In this document: in pieces, positions 4,044 through 34,100 of the stretch
Position numbering within the stretch: the stretch's first letter is position 1
How the letters are laid out: every line of letters begins with the position of its first letter
Assembly: GCF_045802625.1 (NCBI RefSeq)
Contig: NZ_JBJMQP010000096.1
Coordinates: 1-37,809, forward strand
Source of the DNA: Hyalangium sp.
GTDB taxonomy: Bacteria > Myxococcota > Myxococcia > Myxococcales > Myxococcaceae
Direction: 5' to 3'
Length of the DNA stretch: 37,809 nucleotides
Made by a program: the position numbers and the translations under genes
The notes under the pieces: model-generated
The model's database searches: none
Told to the model about the DNA's origin: nothing
The model's input: the letters and a program-made list of their open reading frames with translations, nothing else

Positions 4044-4080
4044 GGCGTGAGGCCCCTCGTGGGCCTGATGGCTTGCTTCA

Positions 4081-4121
4081 GGCGCCCTGGCGGCCACCGC
4101 CGGGGCGTCGTGCTTCTTTCT
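4081..4121 (+). terminator. intrinsic-terminator-like hairpin plus U-tract in the rpsD-rpoA spacer
   Basis: Stem ggcgccctggcgg/ccgccggggcgtc is about 13 bp with 2 G-U pairs. It is followed by gtgcttctttctgg. It is flanked by smaller hairpins aggccc-ctcgt-gggcct (4050-4066) and ggccgg-catgt-ccggcc (4122-4138). Confidence 0.35.
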
Positions 4122-4226
4122 GGCCGGCATGTCCGGCCCTGGCTATTTGTCGTACCCCCGCGTGTCCATCCTCCTGCCACCCTGGCGGGTAAGTCGGTGG
4201 TGGCGCACGCTCCGAGGAGCAACACC

Positions 4227-5273
4227 ATGGCTGATACGTTCATCGCGAAGAACTGGCGCGACCTCATCAAGCCTCGCCGGCTGGAAGTCGATCAGGACTC
4301 GCTCACCACCACTTACGGCAAGTTCGTCGCCGAGCCGCTCGAGCGCGGCTTTGGCACCACGCTGGGCAACTCGCTGCGCCGCGTGCTGCTGTCCTCGCTG
4401 CAGGGCTCGGCCATCACCTCGGTGAAGATCGAGGGCGTGGACCACGAGTTCACCACCATCCCCGAGGTGGCCGAGGACGTCACGGACATCGTGCTCAACC
4501 TGAAGGAAGTCCTCCTTCGGATGCACACGAACGAGACGAAGACCCTGCGCATCGAGGCGGAGGGCCCCAAGGAGATCAAGGCCGGTGACATCATCGCCGA
4601 CCAGGATGTGGAGATCCTCAACCCCGGCCACCACATCTGCACGGTGTCCGAGGGCGGCAAGGTGCGCATGGAGCTGTCGTGCCGCCGCGGCCGTGGCTAC
4701 GTGGCCGCCACCGTCAACAAGGTGGCTGGCGCGCCCATCGGCACCATCCCCATCGACTCGCTGTTCTCGCCCATCCGCAAGGTGAACTACCAGGTCACCA
4801 ACGCCCGCGTCGGCCAGGTCACTGACTTCGACAAGCTGGCGCTGGAGGTCTGGACGGACGGCTCCGTGACTCCGCAGGACGCGGTGGCGTACGCGGCGAA
4901 GATCATCAAGGAGCAGCTCACGGTCTTCGTGAACTTCGACGAGACCGAGGAGCCCGTGGTCGCGGAGGCCCCGAAGGAGGAGGCCAAGCTCAACGAGAAC
5001 CTCTTCCGCTCGGTGGATGAGCTGGAGCTCTCGGTGCGCTCGGCCAACTGCCTGCAGCAGGCCAACATCAAGACCATCGGCGATCTGGTGCAGCGCACCG
5101 AGGCCGAGATGCTCAAGACGAAGAACTTCGGCCGCAAGTCTCTGAAGGAGATCAAGGAGATCCTCGCGGAGATGGGCCTGTCGCTCGGCATGAAGCTGGA
5201 GAACTGGCCCCCGAAGCAGGCTCCGGTGGCGGCTCCGGCCGCTCCCGCCGCCAGCGCGGCGCCCAAGGCCTAG
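4227..5273 (+). CDS. rpoA: DNA-directed RNA polymerase alpha subunit
   Basis: Translation from ATG 4227 ([21 protein letters not shown]...) gives 348 aa with alpha NTD, alpha CTD and an Ala/Pro tail. SD GAGGAG lies 7 nt upstream. The track ORF starts 180 nt upstream in the spacer. Confidence 0.93.
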
Positions 5274-10820: not shown

Positions 10821-12521
10821 ATGCCCGCCCTGTTGCTGCTCACCGGCCCTTCCGCCGGCCGCCGGTTCGAGGTGGTCTCGGAGGTGACGATCGGCCGCAG
10901 CCCCTCGTGCGAGCTCCAGATCGACGACGACAAGGTGTCGCGGCGGCACGCGCGGATCTTCCTGCGCGAGGGCCAGGTGTGGCTGAGCGATCTGGGCTCG
11001 ATCAACGGCACGCTCGTCAACGGCCGGCGGGTGAAGGGCGAGGCTCGTCTGCTGCCGGGCGATCGCTTCCAGGTGGGGGAGACCACCGCCACCTACGAGC
11101 CGCTCCCCGAGCCAGTCCTCGCGGAGACGCAGCCGCTGGACGCCAGCCATGTGCCCATCGCGGAGGTGCTGCCCCACGTGGGGCCCGAGGCGGGGCTGTT
11201 CTCGGCGGCGGTGGCGCTGCTGGGGGCTACCAGTGAGGCCATGGTGCTGCGGCGGCTGGTGGTAGAGGCCCTTCACGCGCTCAACGCGGACCGGGCCGCG
11301 GCGCTGCTCGGCGGGCCGGAGGAGCTGCTCACCGCGGCGGTGTCCGGCGCGGCCTCCGTGGAGGTTCCCCGCTTCATGTCGAGCCTGGCGCTGGAGATGA
11401 AGGAGGTGGCCTCCACGGGCACCGCGCTGTGCGCTCCGCTGGTGGCCTCGGGGGGAATGCCCTTTGGGGTGCTGTATGCGGAGTGCAACGAGCCGCGGTT
11501 CTCCGCGCTGGAGGTTCAGCAGGTGGCGGCGCTCGGGCGTATGGGCGGGGAGGCGTATACGGCCCTGCGCTCGCGTGCGCGGGAGGAGCAGGCCCAGGTG
11601 GAGGTGGTGGGCACCTCCCGGCCGTTCCGCCGCATGGTGGAGCAGGCCCGGCGCGCGGCGGCCAGCACGGCGCCCGTGGTCATCTCCGGAGAGCCCGGGA
11701 CGGGGAAGAGCCTGCTGGCCCGGTACATCCACCTGCACTCCCCGCGAGGGCTCGGGCCGCTGGTGGCGGTGGACTGCCGGCAGCCGGCCGTGGAGGAGCA
11801 GCTCTTCGGTGGAGCCAGTGCTCCTGGGCTGCCGCCGCGCTCTTCGGCGCTCCTGCGCGCGGATGGGGGCACGTTGCTGCTCCAGCATGTGGAGGGGCTC
11901 TCGGGCGCTGTCGTCGAGCGGCTCACGCGGCTGCTCACGAGCAAGGTGGCTCCGGCGAGGCAGGGCGGTGAGGAGCCCGTGGATCTGCGCCTCATCGCAA
12001 CGGCGAGCGCGCCCGCTCAGCTCCTGGCGGCCCAGGGGGCGATGGACATGACCCTGGCGATGGCGCTGTCCGGGCTGGAGATCGAAGCGCCTCCACTGCG
12101 CGAGCGCCGGGCCGACGTGCTCGCGCTCTTCGAGCACTTCTCCCAGCGGAGCGCGGGAGAGACCCGAAAGCCTGCGCCTGTGCTGAGCCCGGGGGCCCGG
12201 CGCCTGCTGGCGGACTACACCTGGCCGCAGAACGTCCGCGAGCTGAAGCTGGTGAGCGAGCGGCTCGCGCGCGTGTACGCGGGCGGCGAGGTGTACGCGC
12301 TGCGGCTGCCCCCGGAGATCCAGGAGGGCGGGGTGGTGTCTGAGCCGAGCAGCTTGCCGCGGCTTGTGGAGCGCCTGGAGCGGGAGGCGATCATCGAGGC
12401 ACTCCAGGCCGCGGGCGGGAGGAAGAGCCGCGCGGCGGAGCGGCTGGGCATCAGCCGCCCCACGCTGGACAAGAAGATCGAGGAGTACGCCATCCGTGTG
12501 GAGCGCTCGCGGCGGAGCTGA
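10821..12521 (+). CDS. FHA-domain sigma54-interaction-domain transcriptional regulator with degenerate Walker B and GAFTGA motifs
   Basis: N-terminal FHA domain (GRSPSCELQIDDDKVSRRHARI...GSINGT), then an AAA+ bEBP core. Walker A is GEPGTGKS. GAFTGA is replaced by GASAPG, and Walker B reads TLLLQHVEGL where DE is expected. The R-finger PPLRER and WPQNVREL blocks are conserved. C-terminal Fis-type HTH. Confidence 0.85.
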   Translation: MPALLLLTGPSAGRRFEVVSEVTIGRSPSCELQIDDDKVSRRHARIFLREGQVWLSDLGSINGTLVNGRRVKGEARLLPGDRFQVGETTATYEPLPEPVLAETQPLDASHVPIAEVLPHVGPEAGLFSAAVALLGATSEAMVLRRLVVEALHALNADRAAALLGGPEELLTAAVSGAASVEVPRFMSSLALEMKEVASTGTALCAPLVASGGMPFGVLYAECNEPRFSALEVQQVAALGRMGGEAYTALRSRAREEQAQVEVVGTSRPFRRMVEQARRAAASTAPVVISGEPGTGKSLLARYIHLHSPRGLGPLVAVDCRQPAVEEQLFGGASAPGLPPRSSALLRADGGTLLLQHVEGLSGAVVERLTRLLTSKVAPARQGGEEPVDLRLIATASAPAQLLAAQGAMDMTLAMALSGLEIEAPPLRERRADVLALFEHFSQRSAGETRKPAPVLSPGARRLLADYTWPQNVRELKLVSERLARVYAGGEVYALRLPPEIQEGGVVSEPSSLPRLVERLEREAIIEALQAAGGRKSRAAERLGISRPTLDKKIEEYAIRVERSRRS

Positions 12522-12556: not shown

Positions 12557-14218
12557 TCAGAGGGACTTGAGGAACTCGATCAGCTCCCACTTCTGGTCTT
12601 CACTCAACTCCCGAGTGCCGTACGCATGGCCCGCGTTCGAGTTGCCTGGGAGGGTGGTGTCGAACCGGAAGCCTCCGTCCCAGGGCTGAGTGTCGAAGCC
12701 CACGTTCTTGGGATCGAAGTCCCGGCTACCGACGTAGAACTGCTTGACCCGCTGCTCCGGAGGGACCAGCACCTGCCAGAGGTTCGGTACCGAGCCGTTG
12801 TGGAGATAGGGCGCCGTGGCCCAGATCCCATTGAGCGGCCGAGTCTTGTACACATTCAAGTCCTTGCCGTGCGATCTGGGCACCTTGAGGAACTCGCCGA
12901 TCGCCGCCGTCGTCGACTCAATGGGCTGAGAGAGGATGGAGCCCACCACGGCGTGCAGAAGGATGTCCCAGCCGCCCGCCGTGGGGCCGAACGGCTCCCC
13001 GACGAGGACGTATTCCCTGGCGCCCTCGAGCGGGCCCGTCTTCGCCACGCGGGTCGAGAAGTTGGTGGCCATCTTTGGATCCGTCCCCACCTCCGCGAGT
13101 GGCGTCAGGACCGCGGAGACTCGCCGGGCCGGGCTGGTCCGGTCGATGAACGCGTGGCACCTCACGCAATACTTCTCATAGTGTGCCTTGCCCCTGGCGG
13201 CCTTGAGGGGATCAATGGCTGGCAGGACTTCCGTGGGCCACTGGGGGGACCAGAGCTTCTCCAGCGACTTCTCCAGCTTGCCAATGTTCTCGAAGTCGAT
13301 GGAGTTCTCATATCCAGGCATGAGCCCGGACGGGGAGAGCGTGACCGACGCGAAGACTCCCAGCAGCTCGCCGGTGTTGCGGAGCAGCGGCCCCGGCGGA
13401 GTGTTCGAGGCCGAGCCGTTCCACTGCACCACGTCGTGCTGGGGAGTATCCCAGAGGAACGGGTAGGAGACCGGGGCGTCCGCGTTGGTCCGGTTCTCGG
13501 GAATGCCAAGGTCGTGAGCCAACACCATGTTCAGGATGTCCCCGAAGGCATCCAGCCGGGCGTAGCCGTACGCCACCGGAGAGGCATTGAGGTGCCGGCG
13601 AGCTTCCAACTGCGCGGTCGTCTCGAACAGGGCCTGGCGCAGCTCATTGGCACTGTCCAGGTCATAGGCGTCGCGGAGGATGGCCCGCGCGAAGCGCTCG
13701 AACTTCGCGGCATCCTTGCTGGTGGCGGCCAGCGCGGCGGCCAGCTCGTCGAAGAAGGTCGTGAAGTCCGCGAGCGTGGGGGCCCCGTCAATGCGGAGCC
13801 CCACCCCGTTGAAGTTGACCTGGCCGGTATGGCACGCGGCGCAGGTCAGCCCGATCCAGCTCTGGCCATGCTTGTCGACGTCCTTCACGAAGCCCACGGG
13901 CAGACCGTCCGGGTTCAACGGGCTCGGGTCGGCCGTGAGGTACCGGAAGCGCTCGAAGTTCGCGGTAGAGCGGAACAGGTGGGTGTTCGAGGCCTGCTCC
14001 AGGTTCAGGAACCACTCGTAGGGGAGGATCTGGGAGCCCTGGGTGGTGAACCAGAACCACTCTCGCTCCGCCTTGTTCCAGCCCTGGCTCAGGTTGACCA
14101 CTTTGATAGGGCCCCCCCGGGGCGCCTCATCCTTGGAGACGGAGTGGGAGGTGGCACAGCTCTCGAGAACCAGCATGAGGCACGCCATGGCGGCGGCCCT
14201 GGGCAAACATGTCTTCAT
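12557..14218 (-). CDS. secreted di-heme c-type cytochrome (DUF1111 / peroxidase-like family)
   Basis: Two CxxCH motifs (CAACHTG, CVRCHA) and a Sec signal peptide. Start ATG 14218 is preferred, with SD GGAAAGGA 6 nt upstream; TTG 14224 is the alternative. Confidence 0.75.
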   Translation of the reverse strand: MKTCLPRAAAMACLMLVLESCATSHSVSKDEAPRGGPIKVVNLSQGWNKAEREWFWFTTQGSQILPYEWFLNLEQASNTHLFRSTANFERFRYLTADPSPLNPDGLPVGFVKDVDKHGQSWIGLTCAACHTGQVNFNGVGLRIDGAPTLADFTTFFDELAAALAATSKDAAKFERFARAILRDAYDLDSANELRQALFETTAQLEARRHLNASPVAYGYARLDAFGDILNMVLAHDLGIPENRTNADAPVSYPFLWDTPQHDVVQWNGSASNTPPGPLLRNTGELLGVFASVTLSPSGLMPGYENSIDFENIGKLEKSLEKLWSPQWPTEVLPAIDPLKAARGKAHYEKYCVRCHAFIDRTSPARRVSAVLTPLAEVGTDPKMATNFSTRVAKTGPLEGAREYVLVGEPFGPTAGGWDILLHAVVGSILSQPIESTTAAIGEFLKVPRSHGKDLNVYKTRPLNGIWATAPYLHNGSVPNLWQVLVPPEQRVKQFYVGSRDFDPKNVGFDTQPWDGGFRFDTTLPGNSNAGHAYGTRELSEDQKWELIEFLKSL

Positions 14219-14320
14219 GAACAATCCTTTCCAGACTCCGAAGATCAGACATCCCCCCTCACGGGAGGTCTCGGGGGCTCTTCAAGGACTGCTCACGCCC
14301 TCTGTCTGTGAATCCAAGGC

Positions 14321-16273
14321 TCAGCCGACCCGGTACGAGAGATCGTGGAGGCGCAGCTCGTTCCACAACTGCTGGCACTTCTCCAGGGTCCAGCTCGCCG
14401 GGAGCGTGCGCTGCGCGTTCGAGCCACTGAGCAGCTCGCCGTGGAGGCCATGGTAGGCCGTGGTGTCGATGAAATGGACGGTGTAGCCGAGAGGCGTCAG
14501 CAACGCTTGCATGTAGCACTCCAGCACGTCCACGGCGTTGCTCGGGATCCAGACCCGATTGACTTCGGTGGGGCCGGTGTGCAGCTCGCCATGCTCGGAG
14601 AACTTCTGCGCGTTGTTCTCATGTTTGTGCAGCTCTTCCGGAGAGCAGCCGTGCTCCTGGGCGAGCTGGTTCACCTGGGTGCCTTTCCGGGCCCAGGTCC
14701 AGTAACCCACCCACTCCTTTGTCTCGATCTTCATCTGTTGGATGCCGGAGTCGCCCAGCTCTTGCAGCTGCTTCATGAGCTCGCTCTTCAGCTTCTCCTC
14801 CACCAAGGCCTCCTTCTTGCCCCAGGCTCCGTCCGCCTGATCGCCGGGCCAGGGCGGCTGGAGGCCCAGCTCCTCCAGGAGCTTCGACGCCCGGTGACGC
14901 TCCACGCGGGGCCCGAAGGGCTTCGGCACCAGGGCGTGGCCGTTGATGACTTGCAGGTTGACCAGGCCGGCCGTATGGGCGGTGCCCTGTCCGGGAACAG
15001 AGGTGTCGAACGCCACGGGGATCGGGATGAAGCTCTCGTCATCCAGCGCGAGCCCGGCCTTCAGCCGCTCCCGGAGATGAGCGAACTTCTCGCGCTGCAG
15101 CGTGGTGTTTGTCTCGCGGAACGTCCCCACCGAGAGCGAGGGGTAGCGAGCCGTGAGCTGATTCTGCTCCTTTGGCTCGAGGAGCTCATAGAGCCGGATC
15201 ATCAGTCCGGGATCCGCGATGAGCACTCGGGAGGAGCCCTCTTCGGGCTGGAGGAAGGCCACCAGCTCACTGACGTGCCCGACGGCAAGCCAGGAGGTGT
15301 CGATCGGGAGCAGGGGCTGGAGCCGCTGCGACGTCAACCACTGGCGCAGCCGCGGTTCCATGCGGCCCTGCTCGCTGTCCCCGACGACCAGCTTGCCGAG
15401 CGGCGCGGGCGGGTGCTCGGTGACGGCGGGACCGGACTCGTCTGCCGCGAGCGGCGCGGTCTTGCTCGGCACGGGGGGGCTGACGAGTACGTTGCCCCCA
15501 TAGCTCTGGTGGGACTCTCTGGCTCCCTTCTCGGCGAAGAAGACGTCGTTGCAGACGGGCAGCAGGCCCGGCAGCGTGGACAGGACAAGCTCGCTGAGCG
15601 AGCCCTTGGGCAGCCTCGGGAAGTGCAGGGCCACGGCCGTCTGGGTATGCTTGTCGAAGTCGCAGCAATAGCCTGCTTGGAACTGATCCTGGACCCGCGC
15701 GTTGTCTTTGAAGCCATCCTTGAGCGTGTTGAAGAGATACAGTCCATGAGCGCCGTTGCCGTGCACGAGCGCGCTGGTGCCGTGCGCGAGCGCCTGAGAC
15801 GCATCAGCGGGGGACTGCAGGGATTCAGGCCAGATTTGATGGCAGGCCAGCGAGAGATCGTAGACGAACGGGTGATTCTCAGCAGGATCGTAGTACGCGA
15901 AGAGCCTCTCGCAGTGGGCCCAGCCGGGGAGGGCGAGCCAGGGGCCCAGGAGCGTGCTGCCCCACGCGGTGGGCAGGAAGCCGGCGAAGGCCTCTCCTTG
16001 GAGACTGCCCGGCTGGAGCTTCAGGGTGCCGCGCGTCGCGTCGCTCAACACGAGGTTGGCAGGAGTGAGATCCGTGGCGTGGATGGGCTCCTGGCCGCTG
16101 GTGAGCCTCTGCTCGATGACGGTGTGGTGCACCTTGAAGAGAAACTTCGGGTCCAGGCCGCAGGCGCTCTGGAGATGATCGGCCAGGGCCTCCCCCGTCA
16201 GCTCCGCGTCGGGGAGATGTACCTTGGTTTTGAACCAGCGCCCCTGACTGAAGAAATAGACATCCGTATCCAT
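14321..16273 (-). CDS. protein-arginine deiminase (PAD) family homolog, with catalytic Cys to Ser and Asp to Ser substitutions
   Basis: Blocks match PAD catalytic-domain signatures: RVQDQFQAGY (PAD4 D350 region), LAVGHVSELVAFLQP (VGHVDEF), HALVPKPFGP (HLGIPKPFGP), VHFIDTTAYHGLHGELLSGSNA (TFINDF.YH..HGEVHCGTNV). Start ATG 16273 with SD GAGGAG. The track's GTG 16369 would overlap the NmrA gene. Confidence 0.75.
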   Translation of the reverse strand: MDTDVYFFSQGRWFKTKVHLPDAELTGEALADHLQSACGLDPKFLFKVHHTVIEQRLTSGQEPIHATDLTPANLVLSDATRGTLKLQPGSLQGEAFAGFLPTAWGSTLLGPWLALPGWAHCERLFAYYDPAENHPFVYDLSLACHQIWPESLQSPADASQALAHGTSALVHGNGAHGLYLFNTLKDGFKDNARVQDQFQAGYCCDFDKHTQTAVALHFPRLPKGSLSELVLSTLPGLLPVCNDVFFAEKGARESHQSYGGNVLVSPPVPSKTAPLAADESGPAVTEHPPAPLGKLVVGDSEQGRMEPRLRQWLTSQRLQPLLPIDTSWLAVGHVSELVAFLQPEEGSSRVLIADPGLMIRLYELLEPKEQNQLTARYPSLSVGTFRETNTTLQREKFAHLRERLKAGLALDDESFIPIPVAFDTSVPGQGTAHTAGLVNLQVINGHALVPKPFGPRVERHRASKLLEELGLQPPWPGDQADGAWGKKEALVEEKLKSELMKQLQELGDSGIQQMKIETKEWVGYWTWARKGTQVNQLAQEHGCSPEELHKHENNAQKFSEHGELHTGPTEVNRVWIPSNAVDVLECYMQALLTPLGYTVHFIDTTAYHGLHGELLSGSNAQRTLPASWTLEKCQQLWNELRLHDLSYRVG

Positions 16274-16326
16274 GGGTCTCCTCGAGCTTGTCGGCCTGGA
16301 CGAAGGTGCGCACGCGCGTGCCAGGG

Positions 16327-17277
16327 TTACGCCGCCCCCAGCAGGCGTGCCTTGTTGCGCGCGAGCCACTCGGAGAACGTCTGCAGCCCCGGGTTCAGCT
16401 CGCGCGCGAAGGCAGGGTCGCGGACAGCGCAGTACTCCTTCTCGAAGTCGCGCATGAACTGGAACATGTTCGCCAGGTCCTTGGCGCCGGGGAAGTTGAA
16501 CGTCCGGTACACCTCCGGCGGCATGTAGCCGTAGATGACCTCCTGGCCGAGCGCCTGTCTCAGCGTCGCGGCGATCTGCTCACCCGTCAGGTGCTCGCCG
16601 GCCAGGCCCACCGTCTTGCCGATCAGCTCGCGGCCCCGCTTGAAGATGCCGTAGGCACAGTCGCCGATGTCCTCGCTGGCGATGCCCGCGAGCTTCTTGT
16701 CCGCCATGGGCAGGACGAAGACGAGCTTGCCGTCGGGACCCTTCTTCGAGCCCATCCCGAAGCGCAGCAGGTTGTCCCAGGAGAATGTCGTGAGGAGGAA
16801 CGTGGTCGGCACGCCCAGCTCCGTGAAGTGGCGGTCGCTCTCGCCCTTCACGTCGAACTGGGGGACCTTGTACTTCCCCTTCAACGTCGGCATCCGCTCA
16901 TCCTCGAGCGGCATCAGGCGGCGCGTGTCCTCCAGCGTCGACCAGATGACGTGCTGCAGGCCCGCATCCTTGGCGGCCTGAGCCATTGTCCTGGCCTGGG
17001 CGAGCTCCTTCTCGGGAGCGGAGTTCTCCCAGAAGTTCGTGAGGCAGAAGGCCCCGTAGGCGCCCGCGAACGCCGCGCGCATGCTGCCCAGATCGTTCAC
17101 ATCGGCCGTGACGACCTCCGCGCCGAGCTTCGCCAGCTTGTGTGCCAGCTCGGAGTTTGACTTGCGCGTGAGGGCGCGCACCGCGAACTCGCCGCTGGGG
17201 TCCGCGAGGATGGCACGCGCAAGGCCTCCCCCCTGATCTCCCGTTGCTCCCACCACCGCGATGATCTTCTTGTTCAT
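16327..17277 (-). CDS. NmrA-family NAD(P)-binding protein
   Basis: Rossmann motif VVGATGDQGG with NmrA-like architecture; 316 aa. ATG start with SD GGAGA. Starts 21 nt downstream of the SET gene. Confidence 0.85.
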   Translation of the reverse strand: MNKKIIAVVGATGDQGGGLARAILADPSGEFAVRALTRKSNSELAHKLAKLGAEVVTADVNDLGSMRAAFAGAYGAFCLTNFWENSAPEKELAQARTMAQAAKDAGLQHVIWSTLEDTRRLMPLEDERMPTLKGKYKVPQFDVKGESDRHFTELGVPTTFLLTTFSWDNLLRFGMGSKKGPDGKLVFVLPMADKKLAGIASEDIGDCAYGIFKRGRELIGKTVGLAGEHLTGEQIAATLRQALGQEVIYGYMPPEVYRTFNFPGAKDLANMFQFMRDFEKEYCAVRDPAFARELNPGLQTFSEWLARNKARLLGAA

Positions 17278-17298: not shown

Positions 17299-18609
17299 TC
17301 AGCCAACTCGTTGATCGCTCTGCGCGCTCGTGTCTTCGGGGCCAGGAGAGGCGCTGCGCAGCGTGGGAAGGAAAGTCCGCGCCAGGCCGGCGAACGCGTG
17401 GAGCAGCCGCTTCTCTCCGCGCCGCAGCAGGAGGCAGGTGCGCGCGTTGCGCGAGAGCTCCGCATCCCGGAGGAGCTGCTCGTCCTCCTCCAGCGTCGTC
17501 TCGAAGCCCGCGAGCCGCGCCTCGCAGAGCTCACCGAGCGTACGGAGGACCCGCTCCTCGTTGTCCACGCTCAAGGGCTCAATGACGCCCAGGCCCCCGC
17601 TGGCGTTGGCAGCGGAGGTGATGCTGGCGAGTTCCTCCTCGTTCGCATGGGCCACACGGAGGAAGGAGAACATCGCCGCGGTCGTTGCGTGATCGTAATA
17701 GAGGGGCACCTCGAAGCGGCGCAGCGCGGTGGGGCTGGACAGCCCCAGGAGCTCCCGCTTGACGAGCGCCAAGGGATCACTTTCGGGAATGCCCAGATGG
17801 AGCAACAGCTCATCCTGAGGGTTGTCCTCGGGCACGAAGCCGTAGTTGAGCAGGAAGCGGAAGTTGGACTTGACTCCGTAGCTGATGTGGAATTCCTCGC
17901 CTGCGGACACGGCCTCTCGCGCCACCAACACGAAGGCCGTCTCGTCCGCGGAGGGTCCCCACAGGCCATGGGGAGACTGCCGGTGGTTGAGCATGTCCGC
18001 CAGCGGCACGAAGCACCGGACGAGCTTTCCGCCCAGCTTCATGCCGAAGGTGCGGCTGACGAGCACGAGCTGCGCCCAGAGGAACGCGTCAGGAGTGAAG
18101 CGCGAGAATCCAGGAACACGCTCGCACAGGAAGGCATACTCGCCCAGCAGCAGCGCCCTCCATCTCGCGACCTCCCCCAGCATGGCGGAGCCCTTCAAGA
18201 AAGAGAGGTCGTGCTCGTCGAAGAAGAGGGGCAGGTGAGGGAAGGCGGCCGGCAAGGGATCGAGATAAGGCTTCCAGCAGGAGTTCTCTCGCGAGCGTTC
18301 CTGGAGGAGGAAGGCGGCCAGGCACGACTCCTCGCTCGCGGAAGGGGCATGAGCCGCGATACGGCGGCCGATGTCGGAGGCGCTGGCGACGTCGAACGTC
18401 AACAGGCACCCCCGTGGCACTCGGAGCACCTCCTCGCCCGGAGCAATATCGGCCCGGGCAAAGACGCCGCGCTCGCCGCCCTCCAAGTAGTCGATTCGCA
18501 GTTTGGGGAAGGAGGCTCCTGCCTGTTCAAGCCATTCCAGCGAGAAGGGCTCGTGCGCCGGATGACTGTCCTTTGGGGTACTTGGGTCTGCCTGAAAGTC
18601 GGTGCTCAT
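17299..18609 (-). CDS. SET-domain protein lysine methyltransferase (Rubisco-LSMT/SETD3-like)
   Basis: SET signatures VPLADMLNH and GEEFHISYG, post-SET LLNYGFVPEDNP, and a helical C-terminal substrate-binding-like domain. ATG 18609 is preferred over TTG 18675. Confidence 0.8.
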   Translation of the reverse strand: MSTDFQADPSTPKDSHPAHEPFSLEWLEQAGASFPKLRIDYLEGGERGVFARADIAPGEEVLRVPRGCLLTFDVASASDIGRRIAAHAPSASEESCLAAFLLQERSRENSCWKPYLDPLPAAFPHLPLFFDEHDLSFLKGSAMLGEVARWRALLLGEYAFLCERVPGFSRFTPDAFLWAQLVLVSRTFGMKLGGKLVRCFVPLADMLNHRQSPHGLWGPSADETAFVLVAREAVSAGEEFHISYGVKSNFRFLLNYGFVPEDNPQDELLLHLGIPESDPLALVKRELLGLSSPTALRRFEVPLYYDHATTAAMFSFLRVAHANEEELASITSAANASGGLGVIEPLSVDNEERVLRTLGELCEARLAGFETTLEEDEQLLRDAELSRNARTCLLLRRGEKRLLHAFAGLARTFLPTLRSASPGPEDTSAQSDQRVG

Positions 18610-18811
18610 TGGCTCCGCCGTGCGGCGTGGGTGCGCCAGGAAAGACGTGGCAGCGGAGGTGGTTGTGATTTCCAAGGCTCAGCGAGGCAGGTCCGTGGTG
18701 AAGCTCCAGAGCAGCGAGCCAGGAGGAGTGCGCTCACCCGCCTGTCAGCCAGAGCCCTCGTCCGCTCTCCTGGAGCTCACATCCCTGAAGGATGAGAGCC
18801 TTCTGCATTCC

Positions 18812-21167: not shown

Positions 21168-22931
21168 CTACTCCGGGAGGATGCGCGTCCGCACATAGCG
21201 GCCCGGAGCTGCTTCGATGGGGTGCAACGCTCCATCCCCTGGCGATCGGGCCGGGACACGCGGTCCCGAACGTTCAGACAGCCAGGCGTCCCAGTCGGTC
21301 CACCAGGAGCCCGGCCGCTCCACAGCGCCGGTGAGCCATGCGTCCGCATCCGGCGCCAGTGGCTCTGGCTCGGCCACCCAGTGACGGTACTTGTTCGCCG
21401 CTGGCGGGTTGATGACGCCGGCGACGTGACCGGAGCCCGCAAGGACGAACCGTTTAGGGCCGGAGAAGTGCCGCAGGCCCCGGTACACGGAGCGGAAGGG
21501 AGCGATGTGGTCCTCCCGGCAGGCCTGCACGTAGAGGGGGATGCGTACCCGGCCCAGGTCGAGCGGCGTCTCCCCGAAGCAGAGGGCTCCCGGCTGCACC
21601 AGCCGGTTGTGCAAGTACAGCTCTCGCAAGTAGGTGGCGTGCGCTCGCGCTGGCAGGTGCGTCGGGTCGGAGCTCCAGTACAGGAAGTCGCTCGGGGCTG
21701 GCTCCCGGCCGAGCAGGTAGTTGTTCACCACGAAAGGCCAGAACAGCTCCTTGGCCCGGAGCAGGTTGAAGGTGGTCATCATGTCGACCCCGTCGAGGTA
21801 TCCCCGCTGGCGCATGCTCGCCTCCAGGTGCTCGAGCTGGGGCCCGTCGATGAACGCGCCCAGATCGCCGGGCTCGCTGAAGTCCACCTGCGTGGTGAGC
21901 AGGGTGGCGCTCTGGATGCGCTCGTCTGCCTGGGCGGCCAGGTAGGCCAGCCCCGTTGCCAGCAAGGTGCCACCGATGCAGTAGCCCAGCGCGGACACCT
22001 GCTGCTCCCCGGTGGCCCGGGTGGTGGCCTCGAGCGCGGGCAGCAGCCCACGGAGCAGGTAGTGCTCCAGGTCCACGTGGGCGTGGCTCGCGTCCGGGTT
22101 CACCCAGGAGACGAGGAACACCGTATAGCCGCGCTCCACCGCCCAGCGGACGAAGGAGTTCTCCGGACGAAGATCCAGGATGTAGTACTTGTTGATCCAC
22201 GGAGGGATCACCAGCAACGGGCGCCGGTATACGGTGGCCGTGGTGGGCCGGTACTGGAGCAGCTGGAACAGGGTGTCCTCGTAGATGACCTCGCCCGGTG
22301 TGACGGCCAGGTTCTCTCCCAGCTTGAAGGTGCGGGTGTCCGTCATGCGAGGTGCGAGCCGGCCCTGGCCGCGCTCGAGATCCGTGAGCAGCGCCTCCAG
22401 TCCGGACCGCAGGGTGCGGCCGCCAGACTCCCGCGCGGCGCGGAGCACCTCCGGGTTGAGGACAGGGAGGTTCGAAGGGGCCAGGGCCTCGGTGAGCTGG
22501 CGGGTGTAGAAGCGGGCCTTGAGCGCCGTGGGCCTGTCCACCCCCTGGGCGTTGGCCACCACCTGCTGCAGCCAGTCCGCGCCCAGCAGGTACGAGCGGC
22601 GGGCGAAGTCGAAGAAGGGGTTCTCCGTCCACGCGGGATCGCGGAAGCGGCGGTCCTCTCGCGGCGGCGGCGCGGTCTCGCCAGGGCGCGCCAGGGTCTG
22701 ACAGAGGCTCGCGGAGCGCTCACACAGATCACTCCCCGCCGTCAGCAGCTGCTCGGGGTTCATCGCCGTCCGGAGGAGCACCTCCAGGAAGGCCCGCCGC
22801 ATGTGCCTCAGGGAAGCGTCCTCCGCCGCCTCACTGGCCCTGTGCTCGAGCCAACGCGCCAGCACCCCGCAGGCCCGGGCCATGGCTCGGACCTGCTCCA
22901 GCCGCTGTGCATCTCCATCGTCGGCATCCAT
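21168..22931 (-). CDS. phaC: class I poly(3-hydroxyalkanoate) synthase
   Basis: Lipase box GYCIGG and an alpha/beta-hydrolase core with conserved His/Asp; class I length (587 aa). ATG 22931 with SD AGGAAGGAG 9 nt upstream. The track start (TTG 22964) is less likely. Confidence 0.9.
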   Translation of the reverse strand: MDADDGDAQRLEQVRAMARACGVLARWLEHRASEAAEDASLRHMRRAFLEVLLRTAMNPEQLLTAGSDLCERSASLCQTLARPGETAPPPREDRRFRDPAWTENPFFDFARRSYLLGADWLQQVVANAQGVDRPTALKARFYTRQLTEALAPSNLPVLNPEVLRAARESGGRTLRSGLEALLTDLERGQGRLAPRMTDTRTFKLGENLAVTPGEVIYEDTLFQLLQYRPTTATVYRRPLLVIPPWINKYYILDLRPENSFVRWAVERGYTVFLVSWVNPDASHAHVDLEHYLLRGLLPALEATTRATGEQQVSALGYCIGGTLLATGLAYLAAQADERIQSATLLTTQVDFSEPGDLGAFIDGPQLEHLEASMRQRGYLDGVDMMTTFNLLRAKELFWPFVVNNYLLGREPAPSDFLYWSSDPTHLPARAHATYLRELYLHNRLVQPGALCFGETPLDLGRVRIPLYVQACREDHIAPFRSVYRGLRHFSGPKRFVLAGSGHVAGVINPPAANKYRHWVAEPEPLAPDADAWLTGAVERPGSWWTDWDAWLSERSGPRVPARSPGDGALHPIEAAPGRYVRTRILPE

Positions 22932-22979
22932 CCGAGGCCGCTCCTTCCTGGCAAAGCCGCGCAAGGTGCGCGTCCGCCC

Positions 22980-25579: not shown

Positions 25580-27277
25580 TCAGCTCTGCTTCGCGCCCGC
25601 GCGGGCCAACGCCTCGCGGCCTCCTGCCAGATAGAGCTGCTCCCATTGCAGGAGTTGCGTGGGAGTCACCCCCAGCTTTTGAGCGGACTCCAGCCGGCGC
25701 GCGGCCAGCTCCAGCACCGCACGCTCGAGCTCCTCGTGGCCCTGGGGCTTGCTCGGAGGAGTAGGGGCCGGTGGCGGCGCCGTCAGGGAGAGCAGCCCCA
25801 AGGTGGACGGGAGGGTGCTGGCCGGCGCCGGCTGTGCCAGCGGCAGCCGCACCGCGGGATCCCCAAGGAGGATGTAGCCGCCCAGATCCTGGCGGAGCAT
25901 CCACAGGTGGGCCCGCTGCAGCGGATCCACTGGTGAGGGCCGCCCGGCGCCCCGGGCCTCCTCTTCCTGATCATACAGCGTGGTCAGCTCGAGGTTGGCC
26001 TGGTGGCCCCCCCGCAGCAGCCACCCCAGGCCCACTCCGGCGCGGCGTCCCCGCGCGAACTGTTGCAGCGGCTCCAGGAAGCGGGAGGTCTTGCCGCGGC
26101 GGCTGTCGCGATCCTGGAAGCCATACGTCCAGGCCAGGTCCACGTGGCCGAAGACCGCCAGCGGCCCGTTCGGGTTGGCCAGCGCGGCCTGGGGCAGCGC
26201 GGCGACGAAGGGCCGCTCTCCGGGCTGCGGGAGCGAGGAGGTGATGGAGTCGAGCCTCCCGCTGAACTGCCCCCCTGCCTGGAGCTGCCGCAGCCAATGC
26301 TGGAACGCGCTCCGCGACGGAGTGCCCGCGCCGAAGCAGGCGAAGAGGAACCAGATGCCGCCCGGCAGGAAGGGCCGGCTGGCCAGGGAGGCGCCGTCCA
26401 GGTGTAGTCCTTCCCCCAGGTTCATCGCGCCCTGGAGCGCGAGCTTCTCGTCCGTGCTGCGCCAGCCGGCGCGCGGGCTGCCGAGCCCGTGGCTCATGCT
26501 GAAGAGGATCCCAGGCCGTGGCTGTGATGCCTGCTCGAGCAGCTCGGTCACACCGCCCTTTCCGGGCCCCCCGAGCTCTAGCAGCTCCCGCATGGGGAAT
26601 CTGCCCAGCTCACGGGCCTGCTGGGCGGCGACGAGGCCTGGCGCCACCAGCGCCTGGTAGCCCGTGGAGGTCGCCGCGGTGCCGTCATGGACCGTGAAGA
26701 AGAGCGCGCGTGCCTGCTCCTCGGTGGAGGGCTCGCGCTCCCAGCGGAGCACCTTCGCCACGTAGGACTCGTAGTCCTGCTCGCGCCGGAAGGCCAGCCG
26801 CCCGACGAAAGCACTGCTGGCCGCGCACTGCTGCAGCTCGAAGGGCACCTGGTCGAAGTCCCCGAGGAACAACAGGTAGCGCGGCCGATCCGCCACCGGC
26901 ACCGACTCGTCATCGAGCACGGTGCGCACCCAGCGGGAGAAGTGCTCCAGGCTCCGGGCCTCCGCGGCCAGCCCTGGCTTCACCCGGTAGATGCGGACAG
27001 GGTGACCGCCCTGATCCTCCTGCCGCCGCCGGCGCAGGGGCTCGATGAGGGCGAGCAGCCGGTCGCCTTCGGGCCCCTCGGGAGCGACGAGGCCCCAGCG
27101 CTGCGCGGGCAGTGAGTTGGGATCCTCGCCATCATCCCAGAGGTGGCTCTCCTCCCGGGCCTCCTGGGACTCGCTGGGAGGGGCCTGCGCGGCGGCTGCC
27201 GCTGGCACCCCTTGGGGGGTTACGGGTTCGTGGGAATCAGCGTGGACAAGTAACAGCTCCAGGTTCTCCGTGCTCAA
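25580..27277 (-). CDS. gingipain-like (peptidase C25, clan CD) cysteine peptidase with no signal peptide and a C-terminal HTH
   Basis: C25 blocks YLLFLGDFDQVPF, catalytic His ILFSMSHGLGS, catalytic Cys IWFLFACFGAGTP, and GGYILLGDPAVRLPL. After a Pro-rich linker the C-terminus reads LELAARRLESAQKLGVTPTQLLQWEQLYLAGGREALA, which resembles the IS3 OrfA HTH. TTG start at 27277. Confidence 0.7.
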   Translation of the reverse strand: MSTENLELLLVHADSHEPVTPQGVPAAAAAQAPPSESQEAREESHLWDDGEDPNSLPAQRWGLVAPEGPEGDRLLALIEPLRRRRQEDQGGHPVRIYRVKPGLAAEARSLEHFSRWVRTVLDDESVPVADRPRYLLFLGDFDQVPFELQQCAASSAFVGRLAFRREQDYESYVAKVLRWEREPSTEEQARALFFTVHDGTAATSTGYQALVAPGLVAAQQARELGRFPMRELLELGGPGKGGVTELLEQASQPRPGILFSMSHGLGSPRAGWRSTDEKLALQGAMNLGEGLHLDGASLASRPFLPGGIWFLFACFGAGTPSRSAFQHWLRQLQAGGQFSGRLDSITSSLPQPGERPFVAALPQAALANPNGPLAVFGHVDLAWTYGFQDRDSRRGKTSRFLEPLQQFARGRRAGVGLGWLLRGGHQANLELTTLYDQEEEARGAGRPSPVDPLQRAHLWMLRQDLGGYILLGDPAVRLPLAQPAPASTLPSTLGLLSLTAPPPAPTPPSKPQGHEELERAVLELAARRLESAQKLGVTPTQLLQWEQLYLAGGREALARAGAKQS

Positions 27278-31117: not shown

Positions 31118-34100
31118 TCAAGGCCGCGGGGCGGGCGGAGTCCGATCATGCGTCTGTTCGCACGAGGCGGACGCCTGCCGCGCCGGAGCTGGGAGATCGC
31201 CTAGATAATTCTGGCGCTCCCAGGCCGTCAGACAGGCCGAGCTGGCCGCCTGGAGCCGCTCCTGGAGTGAGTCCATGGGGAGGGGCTCGCGCGGGCGCCA
31301 GAGGCGGGCGCTCCCATCCGTGGAGCCGGTGAGGAGCTGCACGTCTTCCCCTTGGGGGCTGAACGCGGCCGATGTCACCTGGCCCTCGTGCGAGGAGAGG
31401 ACGAGGTGGGGCTCCCGGGTATCGCTGGCGAGCCAGAGGCGGACGCGCGCATCCGCGCAGGCGGTGACGAACCGGCTTCCATCCGGGCTCCAGGCGGCCC
31501 AGAGCACCGGGGCTTCGTGCCGGGCGACGAATTGGACCCCGTGGACCTTGCCCCCCTCCACGCGCCAGATGCGTGCCGTGCCATCCTGTGAGGCGGTGAG
31601 CACCCGCGTCGGATCCTGGGGATGGAAGGCCGCCGAGAGGACCCAGTCGTCGTGCCCGTAGAGCGTGGCGAGCAGGTTCCCCTCCGTGCTCCAGATGCGT
31701 GCCGTGCCATCCTGGGAGGCGGTGAGCACCCGGCGGCCATCCGCGCTGAAGGACACGGAGCGGACCTGGGCGCCATGTCCCTCGAGCAGGATGGCACGCC
31801 GCGGGTCGTCCACACGGACGATCCGGGTGGTGCTGGCGCCCGAGGCGAGCGCCACCCACTGTCCGTCGGGGCTGAACGCGGCGCCGAAGAGGGGCTCCTG
31901 CTGGGACACCAGGATGCGGCCCGCCGCGTGCCCATCCGAGGGCCAGATGCGCGCCGTTCCGTCCCGGGAGGCTGTCAGCAGCCACTTCCCATCCTGGCTG
32001 AAGGCCACCGAGAGCACATCCTGGGTGTGCCCCTGCAGCACGCGCATGTGCCGGCCGTCATCCGACCAGAGGCGCACCGCGCCATCCTGCGAGGCCGTGG
32101 CCACCCGCGCTCCGTCAGGGCTGAAGGCAACGGACCAGACGAAGCTGCCCTGCCCGGGCAGTGGGCGCGAGTCCCTCGGCTCGTCCATTCTCCAGACCCT
32201 CGCGGTGGCGTCGACGGAGCCCGTCACCATCTGCTTCCCATCCGGACCGAAGGCACCCCACAGGAGGGTGGAGCGGTGCCCTCGCAGGATCCGCGGGGGC
32301 TCGGAGTCGTGGACGGACCAGAGCCGCGCGGTGGTGTCCGAGGAGACGGTGAGGATCCGGTCTCCCAGCGGGCCGCTGAAGGTGGCCATGCGGACGGCAC
32401 CCTGGTGTCCGCGCAGCACCCGGGGCTCGCCGCTCCCGTCCGCCCTCCAGAGCCGGGCGGTGTTGTCCACGGAGGCCGTCACCACCCACTGCCCATCCGG
32501 GCTGAAGCGCGCGGTGGTGAGCTCCCCCTGGTGCCCCTTCAACAGCACGGGTCCTCCCAAGCCGCTGACAGGCCAGATGCGGGCGATGCCATCCCGCGCG
32601 ACCGTCAGCACGCGGGTCCCCTCCGGATCGAACAGGGCGGAGGTGACGGTGGCGGCATGAGGCAGTTCGCGGGGACTGGCTGGCGCATCGAAGGACAGGA
32701 TGCGCGCCTTGCCATCCTGCGAGGCGGTGACCAGCCTCTTCCCATCCGGGCTGAAGGCCACGGTGGAGACGGGGCCCTGATGACGCAGGACGAGCGGCTC
32801 GGCCACGGTCTCGAGCGACCACACCCGCGCCATTCCATCGCGCGAGGCGGTGGCGATCTGCCGTCCATCCGGACTGAAGGCGCCCCACTGGACCACGCCG
32901 CGGTGTCTGAACTCTCGCAGGAGGTGTCCATCCGAGGTCCGCCACAGGCGCGCCGTCCCATCGTGCGAGGAGGTGAGGACCAGCGCCCCGTCTGGAGGGC
33001 TGAAGGTGGCGTGGTAGACCGGCCCCTCGTGGCCCGCCAGCACGAGGGGATCCCCCTCGCCATCGGTCCGCCAGATCCGCGCCGTACCATCTCGCGACGC
33101 CGTCACCACACGCTGCCCGTCCGGGCTGACCTCGACGTAGACCACGGCCTCCTGGTGGCCTCGCAGCACGGCGCGGCTCAGAGGTTGTTGGAGGACCTCC
33201 GAGACATCCCTGTCCCAGCCCTGGAGCTGCGACGGCTCCTGGATCTCGCGCAGCGTGAGCAGGGCCAGCGTGGGGTTCTCGTGCAGCATCGTCCGGGCCA
33301 CGCCCAGCCGGATGAGATCCCTGGCGCGCAGGGCGTACCGCTGCGCCTCCTGCCGCTCCCGCTGCTCCTGGGCCTCGTGCCGCCTGGCGTTCCAGGCCAG
33401 CCCCGCCATCGCCGCGGCAACCCCTATCGCCGCGGCGAGCAGCCCCAGCAGGCGGCGGCGGGCGGCCTGCTGCCGGGATTCGGCGCTGGCCACACTGGCG
33501 TCGATGAGCTGGAGCACGTCCGCGCCAGGATCCTCGTCGTACCGCTCCAGGACACGCTGGGAATACCCGAGCCGGCTGCCAGAGAGCAGATAGGGGGCTC
33601 CTCCATCCGCGTCTTCCCGGTGCGCCAGCCACGAGCGAGCCCAGGCTTGGAGCTCTCGGAAGTGCTGGAGGCGCTCGCGGTCCGCCAACGCCCACTCCAC
33701 GAGGGCAGGCCAGGTGCGGATCAGCGACTCGTGGGAGAGCTGCAACCACTCTTCGCCCGCCTGGCCCTCCTCGCGGATGAGGAGCCGGGCGGTGAGCAGC
33801 GCCTCGAGGACCTGCTCGAACGCGTCGCGCGCCTCCTGCGCCGTGGGGCGTACGTGCTCGAGCATCGCCCGCCTGCGCGTGCCCGGGGAGGCGCCGTGCT
33901 GGAAGTCCACCAGCTCCACCAGGAGCCTGCGCGCCTGGCGCTGCTCGGCGGGGGACAGCGCCGCGTAGAGGCGATCCGCTGCCCGCGTCAGCGCCCCGGC
34001 TACCCCACCAATGGCTGCATAGGCGCGGTGGGTGAGCTGGCCGCCGTCACGCCCCTCCCACAGCTGATCCAGCGCGTATTGCAGCAACGGCAGCGAGCCG

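Follow-up and report, generated by a model that had tools for sequence, protein, structure and literature searches.

A 37,809-nucleotide stretch of Hyalangium sp. DNA (the window) encodes a protein of the protein-arginine deiminase (PAD) family which, judging from its sequence and its modelled structure, is probably a pseudoenzyme, a PAD-fold protein unable to deiminate arginine that derives from a divergent subclade of bacterial PADs. In the list of open reading frames its gene is a complete coding sequence of 650 codons plus a stop codon, preceded by a Shine-Dalgarno-like GAGGAG ca. 5 nt upstream of the ATG, and its codon-position GC (0.67/0.45/0.86) matches that of typical real genes of the window. 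The ATG start is preferred because a longer, GTG-started frame reaching to 16369 overlaps the upstream NmrA gene; a 727-aa open reading frame on the opposite strand (14345-16528, +) was rejected as a gene, its codon-position GC not being of coding type. The product is identical to WP_407738935.1/MFL5346619.1, which NCBI names "protein-arginine deiminase family protein" and which comes from a Hyalangium sp. MAG. A cytoplasmic location belongs to the same probable reading. The coordinates of all features are collected in Table 1.

The PAD homology put forward in a preliminary description of this DNA was confirmed, far beyond chance. Pfam PF03068 matched the protein at 92.8 bits (curated cut-off 25; E = 3e-26), a phmmer search of the PDB returned PADI3 (1.3e-18) and PADI4 (1.2e-15), aligning VGHVSE on VGHVDE and YHGLHGELLSGSNAQR on YHMLHGEVHCGTNVCR, and 796 family relatives were found at E < 1e-3. 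Structure prediction agrees in so far as the MSA-based AlphaFold (AF2) model (pLDDT 74.8, pTM 0.75; mostly 85-97 in the catalytic domain) was matched by Foldseek to PAD3 and PAD4 structures (E ~1e-20, probability 1.0, TM 0.46-0.50), and the predicted catalytic domain is an alpha/beta-propeller (pentein) fold superposable on solved PADs. A single-sequence AlphaFold model of the same protein had a pLDDT of 36. Across Pfam, phmmer and Foldseek the homology is to PADs alone. With human PAD4 and PAD3 (PDB 1WDA, 7DAN) the protein shares the catalytic fold and the motifs QD, GGN-xx-SPP, WL-VGH-x-E, PKPFGP and YH-x3-GE, whereas it is only 18-24% identical to them, lacks their Ig-like N-terminal domains and Ca sites and has two of the four catalytic-tetrad residues.

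Residues were mapped in a MAFFT alignment with PAD4, in which D350 and H471 are kept (D196 and H333 in the PAD-like protein), as is the equivalent of H640, whereas D473 and C645 are both serine (S335 and S616); the preliminary description had read these four positions in the same way and the phmmer alignment places them identically. The Asp350/His471/Asp473 triad is therefore incomplete through the loss of D473, and the nucleophilic Cys of the G-E-x-H-C-G-T-N motif is absent, with Ser616 of GELLSGSN in its place. The preceding residue, H644, an invariant His before the Cys in PADs, is Leu615, and T647 is S618. Neither substrate-channel residue is kept: W347, the pocket-wall Trp, is R193, and R374 has Pro or no residue opposite it, within a loop that aligns with less certainty. 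The losses at H644, W347, R374 and E411 had been overlooked in the preliminary description.

Table 1. Position of the PAD-like gene, its domains and its active-site motifs in the window.
Feature	Position	Strand	Basis or remarks
PAD-family CDS	14321..16273	-	ORF list; Pfam PF03068 E = 3e-26; identity to P0001; codon-position GC; SD-like GAGGAG
N-terminal region, aa 1-108	15950..16273	-	beta-beta-alpha start; fold unassigned to family; pLDDT <50
PAD catalytic (alpha/beta-propeller, pentein) domain (predicted), aa 109-650	14324..15949	-	phmmer domains from ~aa 108; pLDDT; Foldseek
RVQDQFQAGYC motif, aa 193-203 (PAD4 W347-MQDEMEIGY)	15665..15697	-	D196, Q195 kept; W347 to R193; E351, E353 to Q197, Q199
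R220-L-P, aa 220-222	15608..15616	-	R372 kept; Pro or gap at the substrate-backbone-binding R374; loop alignment less certain
VGHVSE, aa 331-336	15266..15283	-	H333 (= H471) kept; D473 to S335, codon AGT at 15269-15271
Spacer subdomain, aa 458-575, between PKPFGPR block and C-terminal motif	14549..14902	-	alignment, AF2 model
HGELLSGSN, aa 611-619 (PAD4 H640-GEVHCGTN)	14417..14443	-	H644 to L615, codon CTC; C645 to S616, codon AGT at 14426-14428; T647 to S618

Among the representatives of 50%-identity clusters (150 of the 796 family matches) taken together with PAD4, 145 of the 147 sequences aligned at D473 have Asp, one has Asn and the PAD-like protein alone has Ser, the column of H644 contains His in 144 and Leu in this one protein, and the column of C645 contains Cys in 142 and Ser in two, the PAD-like protein and P0088. 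Of 104 sequences comparable at W347 two have Arg, and these are also the two with Ser at C645. The closest subclade (P0003, P0017, P0019, P0021 and P0035) retains the His, the Asp and the Cys, the loss is therefore specific to the lineage of the PAD-like protein. Its sole source is one metagenome-assembled contig, and an error in the sequencing, assembly or binning of the MAG, with a canonical PAD as the true gene, would be one explanation; we consider it highly implausible, since codons 335, 615 and 616 would need at least four separate nucleotide changes (GAY to AGT being two steps), further changes would be required at W347, R374, E411 and T647, and all are in frame; errors falling at random would not single out catalytic codons.

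No cysteine aligns with the nucleophile position. Cys543 of EHGCSPEE, which the preliminary description had singled out as a possible occupant, is in a variable segment of the spacer that is not aligned with the nucleophile, and Cys202/203 is in GYC, a clade-wide motif which in the alignment lies far from the nucleophile strand; both were rejected as substitute nucleophiles.

The family-wide conservation pattern is otherwise largely intact. The PAD-like protein matches 45 of the 54 columns that are conserved in at least 85% of the family, and of the nine from which it departs four are in the catalytic motifs; when all sequences were scored uniformly it kept 47 of 54, compared with a family median of 50 and with 46 in active human PAD4. 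Loss that was selective at the active site, not general decay, would be the best explanation of these counts.

Two other features of the protein had been offered as signs of altered function, the loss of Ca ligands and a long insertion, and both are discounted here as evidence, being common to its relatives. The Ca1/Ca2 ligands (Q349, E353 and E411; E351, D369, S370 and N373) are lost except for Q349, the others being Q199 and L263, and Q197, His, Phe and a gap, respectively. The exchange of Glu for Gln reported previously is thus present, but it is not peculiar to this protein: Gln for a Ca-site Glu is frequent among bacterial relatives, and loss of Ca1/Ca2 ligands is found in many that have the full catalytic tetrad. 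Similarly, an insertion of ~100 residues is real when measured against PAD4, in which ca. 120 fewer residues separate the PKPFGP block from the C-terminal motif, yet in the alignment most bacterial PADs possess it as a conserved subdomain, and it is not a private insertion. This spacer is 107-227 aa long in 100 of 109 relatives (median 145), 162 in the PAD-like protein and 42 in PAD4. Its second half (aa 520-575) is confidently folded in the model and holds the family-conserved W527 and N554, its first half is predicted as a low-confidence helix.

We define here a grouping, the long-spacer bacterial PADs, by a 107-227 aa spacer after PxPxGP together with W527 and N554, features that the PAD-like protein possesses. 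The other members (P0003-P0035) share with it the PF03068 family, the catalytic fold and the spacer, and likewise tend to lack the Ca1/Ca2 ligands, but all of them keep D350, H471, D473 and C645, where the PAD-like protein has Ser for both of the last two and in addition Leu615 and Arg193. Its best identity is ~37% over trimmed columns, and the first 108 aa bear no relation to the N-termini of these relatives; the nearest characterised bacterial members of the family are the citrulassin PAD of Streptomyces albulus and the cyanoPADI of Cyanothece. No match to PF08526 or PF08527 was found, hence the PAD_N/PAD_M Ig-like N-terminal half of three-domain PADs is absent, and neither the N-terminal region nor the spacer matched a Pfam or PDB family. 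The N-terminal region stands in place of the longer N-terminal regions of the relatives and shares 61-67% identity with P0034, a fragment of 119 aa from a soil metagenome (SRR5689334).

The preliminary description raised three options, a pseudoenzyme, a Ser-nucleophile variant and a Ca-independent enzyme of new specificity. Of these a pseudoenzyme is the best fit, as D473, H644, C645 and T647 are lost together, along with W347 and R374, while the fold signature is kept. With C645S and D473S the protein has lost the thiolate nucleophile and one of the two guanidinium-binding Asp residues, and the canonical covalent mechanism through an S-alkylthiouronium should not run in their absence, so that any retained function would be non-catalytic. 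Such a role would consist in binding, scaffolding or partnering an active paralogue, as PADI6 does structurally. Speculatively, the acidic pocket (D196/H333), now under-used, may take up Arg193 as a pseudo-substrate from within the protein. A precedent is the neighbouring 'gatekeeper' Arg, which does so in apo-PADI2 and in PADI6.

To our knowledge all characterised catalytic members of the superfamily (ADI, DDAH, AgDI, PAD, AstB and the amidinotransferases) use Cys. An active hydrolase of altered chemistry is improbable here; it would employ either Ser616, together with His333 and Asp196, or else a water that has been activated, on a guanidino, ureido, amidino or non-guanidino substrate, and Arg193 would let it recognise a new substrate, for instance by an anionic group. 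The retained equivalents of D350, H471, R372 and H640 are compatible with it, as are the recurrence of Ser for Cys with Arg for Trp in the independent lineage of P0088 and the precedent of NnhA, which shows that the superfamily can take on new substrates, as it hydrolyses 2-nitroimidazole and has Trp where the second Asp would be (PMC11659421). However, both C357S and C357A inactivate NnhA, so that an exchange of Cys for Ser kills activity in this tested member of the superfamily, and the His base of these enzymes, at ~5 A from the nucleophilic residue, is not believed to take its proton, which would leave a Ser unactivated (PMC11659421); in the PAD-like protein the invariant His644 is Leu and D473 is gone as well. 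The Ser-nucleophile option of the preliminary description is accordingly weak.

Loss of catalysis in a PAD has a parallel in mammalian PADI6 of the oocyte cytoplasmic lattices, which has lost the nucleophilic Cys at its canonical position and the Ca-binding residues, folds without Ca, shows no detectable deiminase activity and has R355 in its pocket (PMC10542454; bioRxiv 10.1101/2024.06.10.598250). The two differ in several respects. PADI6 keeps both Asp and the His and has an Ala flanked by Cys, whereas the PAD-like protein has also lost D473 and H644 and has Arg for Trp, and PADI6 has three domains where the PAD-like protein has a short unrelated N-terminus and the bacterial spacer subdomain. 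PADI6 chains were the weakest PADs among the PDB matches (E = 2e-6 to 1e-4, against 1e-18 for PADI3), and the nearest relatives of the PAD-like protein are bacterial; the loss is independent, the two are not orthologues, and the likeness is one of analogy only.

A closer counterpart to part of the change is P0088 (918 aa, GCA_031415375.1), the only other representative among the 150 of 796 that has Arg at W347 together with Ser at C645. QDQFQ-x-GYC is present in it as well, and R374 and E411 are absent. With 32% identity it falls in another clade, its sister P0139 being canonical (W, C), and it differs from the PAD-like protein in keeping D473 and H644 and in its N-terminal architecture and gene context. 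The co-occurrence of W347R and C645S in both proteins (hypergeometric p ~2e-4) points to correlated remodelling of the pocket. A bolder proposal, which we regard as doubtful, is that the pair marks a recurrent route by which bacterial PADs are converted either into a scaffold or reader with a self-plugged arginine pocket, whose ligand is left unmodified, or into a Ser/water hydrolase of a non-arginine and possibly anionic substrate that the new Arg recognises; if the latter were true, the guanidino-modifying superfamily would gain its first catalytic member that does not use Cys.

Searches for homologous proteins, run both from the single sequence and from a profile of 28 sequences, yielded only the PAD-like protein itself and one canonical PAD, and no full-length orthologue was found in the collections of genome and metagenome contigs that were scanned, including with the DNA pattern T-x-W-L-x-V-G-H-V-[not Asp]-E. 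The gene lies at a synteny breakpoint and is missing from the equivalent locus of Cystobacter fuscus and from two metagenome contigs. Its neighbour-joining terminal branch is 0.33 (median 0.25), T-ending codons are enriched, with GAT and CAT commoner than in neighbouring genes and GC3 slightly lower, and the two Ser residues of the catalytic site are each encoded by AGT, a rare codon that differs from TGT by a single step and from GAT by two. The long branch and the T-ending codons fit relaxed selection and a gene heading to decay, and the AGT codons hint that the changes are recent. These observations favour a recently inactivated gene drifting towards a pseudogene with no function, in which the catalytic residues of a formerly active PAD from the F-for-W subclade would have gone not long before the sample was taken, with decay yet to reach the remainder of the sequence. 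We judge this unlikely on balance: the 650-codon frame is intact, 45-47 of the 54 conserved positions are kept, as many as in active PAD4, and at least six changes clustered at the active site resemble remodelling more than random drift. Furthermore, the W347R and C645S pair arose independently in P0088 and the N-terminal region is kept in a second organism (P0034). The probable pseudoenzyme reading itself has one full-length sequence behind it.

The catalytic residues have been reported as fully conserved across all PADI homologues (PMC8826395), the PAD-like protein is a clear bacterial exception to that surveyed conservation and P0088 a partial one. This means that the PAD fold has been repurposed or inactivated outside mammals too, whose PADI6 was the sole case known before. 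If stable and expressed, the protein would provide a simple bacterial model of a non-catalytic PAD fold, an experiment of nature on the replacement of Cys by Ser in the superfamily and a handle on the correlated W347R change. Its practical weight is limited, the case being a single sequence of a single MAG with uninformative gene surroundings.

The gene context gave no pointer to function: PADLOC found no defence-system match at the locus, and no RiPP or BGC context was found in the window, a core chromosomal region with rpoA. A scan for promoters and terminators likewise gave nothing informative. An operon with the neighbouring SET-domain methyltransferase was rejected, as the SET-NmrA pair is conserved in Cystobacter, Corallococcus and two metagenome contigs with no PAD-like gene beside it, and as relatives of the PAD-like gene lie in unrelated contexts. 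Diverse, non-operonic contexts are those reported for bacterial PADs (bioRxiv 10.1101/2020.07.16.207027; PMC8826395).

The coordinates that the preliminary description gave for the gene of a peptidylarginine deiminase (PAD)-like protein proved to be the right gene model, since the longer mechanical open-reading frame, which reaches a GTG at 16369, overlaps the upstream NmrA-family gene and a GAGGAG lies ~5 nt upstream of the ATG. Its codon-position G+C (0.67/0.45/0.86) matches that of genuine genes in the window (~67% G+C), and the coding-type pattern was not seen in the long opposite-strand frame over the gene. The protein is identical to WP_407738935.1, NCBI 'MAG: protein-arginine deiminase family protein [Hyalangium sp.]', is carried by a single contig of 101.8 kb and shares its 90% cluster with no other protein.

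Coordinates of the PAD-like gene, its parts and other genes of the window
Feature	Position	Strand	Remarks
PAD-like gene	14321-16273	-	650 aa; ATG at 16273, stop codon 14321-14323
N-terminal 108 residues	15950-16273	-	
Codon of S335	15269-15271	-	AGT
Codon of S616	14426-14428	-	AGT
rpoA	4047-5273	+	
FHA/sigma-54 activator	10821-12521	+	
RoxA-like dihaem cytochrome c	12557-14224	-	apparently a lipoprotein
NmrA-like	16327-17277	-	
SETD3-like methyltransferase	17299-18675	-	SET + Rubisco-LSMT-substrate-binding
PhaC	21168-22964	-	
565-aa protein	25580-27277	-	weak Peptidase_C25 and HTH_28 matches
1580-aa open-reading frame	31118-35860	-	coding-type composition

The PF03068 (PAD) profile of Pfam recognises the protein with 92.8 bits (cut-off 25; E = 3e-26); NCBIfam offers no corresponding model. 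In a phmmer search of PDB sequences it matched PADI3 (1.3e-18), PADI4 (1.2e-15), PADI1 and PADI2 (about 1e-13) and PADI6 (2e-6), with WLAVGHVSE opposite WLAVGHVDE and YHGLHGELLSGSNAQR opposite YHMLHGEVHCGTNVCR of the PAD. AlphaFold reached pLDDT 36 from the single sequence and pLDDT 74.8 (pTM 0.75, residues 110-645 mostly >85) when seeded with a 28-sequence alignment, and the top Foldseek matches of this model in the PDB were PADs only (PAD3 and PAD4, E about 1e-20, probability 1.0, TM 0.46-0.50). Homology and predicted fold both place the protein in PF03068, its matches being PADs and not the other family for which the preliminary description had allowed. No cysteine aligns at the nucleophile position; Cys543 (in EHGCSPEE), raised there as a possible substitute, falls where the spacer between the PxPxGP (PKPFGP) block and the C-terminal motif is variable.

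When 1.84 billion cluster representatives were searched exhaustively with HMMER, 796 relatives emerged (E < 1e-3), the top one ~40% identical over the matched stretches. Catalytic columns were read from an alignment of the best 150 of these and human PAD4, the numbering of which was checked at 18 landmark residues.

Catalytic columns in the best 150 of 796 relatives (human PAD4 numbering) and in the PAD-like protein (own numbering)
Column	Relatives	PAD-like protein
D350	Asp in 109, Leu in one other	D196, kept
H471	His in 146	H333, kept
D473	Asp in 145, Asn in 1 (P0105)	S335, sole Ser
H644	His in 144	L615, sole Leu
C645	Cys in 142	S616; Ser also in P0088
T647	Thr in 131	S618
W347	Trp in 91, Phe in 16	R193; Arg also in P0088
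R374	mostly Arg	Pro or gap
E411	mostly Glu	L263

The catalytic residues are likewise conserved in the Streptomyces PAD (Harris et al., bioRxiv 10.1101/2020.07.16.207027), and column counts and published conservation together therefore bear out the loss of the catalytic motifs as real and rare. For PAD specialists the protein is a noteworthy exception to the 'universally conserved' catalytic residues. Active-site loss recurs in about 2% of cluster representatives among the best 150, and the relative P0105 carries H471R together with D473N.

Two further features that had been singled out as peculiar turned out to be shared with relatives. Gln is the commonest residue in the E351 column (49 Gln vs 25 Glu) and is frequent at E353, and His is the majority state at D369, all among the best 150 of 796; the missing Ca1/Ca2 ligands are a clade feature, found alongside an intact tetrad. 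The '~100-aa insertion' is equally a property of the clade: of 109 relatives, 100 have a spacer of 107-227 aa (median 145), and it measures 162 aa in the PAD-like protein and 161 aa in its closest relative, P0003, whilst a short spacer of 42-45 aa occurs in PAD4, P0002, P0125, P0127 and three more relatives. Within the spacer W527 and N554 are conserved in at least 125 relatives, several relatives align over residues 521-629, and the second half is confidently folded in the AlphaFold model (pLDDT 88-95). Within PF03068 the protein thus falls in a long-spacer bacterial clade without Ca ligands and is distinct from the Ca-dependent three-domain PADs.

Conservation was scored over the 54 columns that reach 85% or more in no fewer than 100 relatives. 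The protein retains 45 of the 54, the nine deviations including D335S, H615L, C616S and T618S in the catalytic motifs and, elsewhere, a two-column loop deletion near residue 371, D191N and W571V. When all sequences were scored uniformly it reached 47/54, against a family median of 50 and 46 for catalytically active human PAD4, so that its fold signature is no less intact than that of working enzymes and the damage clusters at the active site. AGT is the codon of both active-site serines (4 of 39 Ser codons in this gene vs 3.7%, a rare codon, across 22 further window genes); a single mutation separates it from TGT (Cys) and two from GAT (Asp), which weakly hints that the substitutions are fairly recent. 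A recently inactivated gene with no function is considered unlikely. In a neighbour-joining tree the protein has a moderately long terminal branch (0.33 vs median 0.25) and groups with its closest relatives P0003, P0017, P0019, P0021 and P0035. This divergent subclade has Phe at W347, a hydrophobic residue at the Ca1 ligand E411 and, in many members, His at R372, but retains H471, D473 and C645. The substrate specificity of this subclade may differ from that of classical PADs.

In PADs and other guanidino-modifying enzymes a Cys thiolate attacks the guanidinium carbon; in PADs the guanidinium is held by D350 and D473 and the hydrolytic water is activated by His471. With Cys changed to Ser, the adjacent His to Leu and D473 to Ser, and with no Trp wall, the canonical reaction would be unable to run, and Ser616 would have no activating base. 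An active PAD has four tetrad residues, of which the PAD-like protein has two, so that it fails the defining features. In the superfamily member NnhA both C357S and C357A are inactive, and the His base, at ~5 A, is not regarded as deprotonating the nucleophile (PMC11659421). A new hydrolase that relies on Ser or water and has changed specificity, akin to the Ser-nucleophile variant first proposed, appears improbable. The sequence comes from a single MAG, but an assembly artefact would require at least four targeted in-frame base changes and is very improbable indeed. The protein is probably a fold-retaining, catalytically dead PAD, and judged from its sequence is best described as a candidate bacterial PAD-family pseudoenzyme. 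PADI6 likewise has no Cys at the canonical position and no detectable activity, and its pocket is closed with a 'gatekeeper' Arg355 inside, a role that R347 plays in apo-PADI2 (PMC10542454; bioRxiv 10.1101/2024.06.10.598250). Arg193 may conceivably occupy the residual D196/H333 pocket; the protein is not a PADI6 orthologue, and the likeness is by analogy only.

The sole other Ser645 protein among the best 150 of 796, P0088 (a 918-aa PAD-family protein; NCBI GCA_031415375.1, locus L001, 8001-10757), also has Arg at the W347 position, but keeps D473 and H644. It belongs to a different clade and its sister P0139 (51% identical) is canonical, with Trp and Cys; W347R and C645S therefore arose together twice (naive hypergeometric p = 1.9e-4 over 104 sequences), a pairing of note to PAD specialists.

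Only one relative is closer, P0034, a 119-aa fragment from a soil metagenome (SRR5689334) which is 61-67% identical to residues 1-124 and stops at a contig edge ahead of any catalytic motif. The N-terminal 108 residues, which have no Pfam or PDB family match and are predicted at low confidence with a beta-beta-alpha start, are therefore a domain present in at least one other organism. No orthologue came from two scans of GTDB species genomes or from two of JGI metagenomes, one of the latter using a DNA pattern that required a non-Asp residue in the VGHVxE motif. A word-indexed protein search, even with the 28-sequence profile, found just the protein itself and one canonical PAD; such an index evidently misses the PAD family at 30-40% identity, where the exhaustive search succeeded.

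Synteny (C25-like, patatin, SDR, PhaC, ECF sigma factor, SET, NmrA) is conserved and stops right after NmrA, exactly at the position of the PAD-like gene. The SET-NmrA pair is kept in Cystobacter fuscus and two metagenome contigs, with SET orthologues also in Corallococcus, and at these syntenic loci in C. fuscus and the two contigs the PAD-like and RoxA-like genes are absent, with no remnants by tblastn. The PAD-like gene is a lineage-specific addition at a variable spot. Its relatives lie in unrelated gene contexts, in agreement with a published remark that bacterial PAD neighbourhoods are diverse, and PADLOC gave no hits; these contexts and the synteny break therefore provide no functional clue. 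The SETD3-like protein, encoded directly upstream of the NmrA-like gene, is a eukaryote-type protein methyltransferase. Immediately downstream of the PAD-like gene, the RoxA-like gene (PF21419) has two CxxCH motifs, probably starts at an ATG near 14217 and encodes a lipoprotein-like signal (…LVLESC). The 565-aa protein is conserved and adjoins the patatin gene in C. fuscus.
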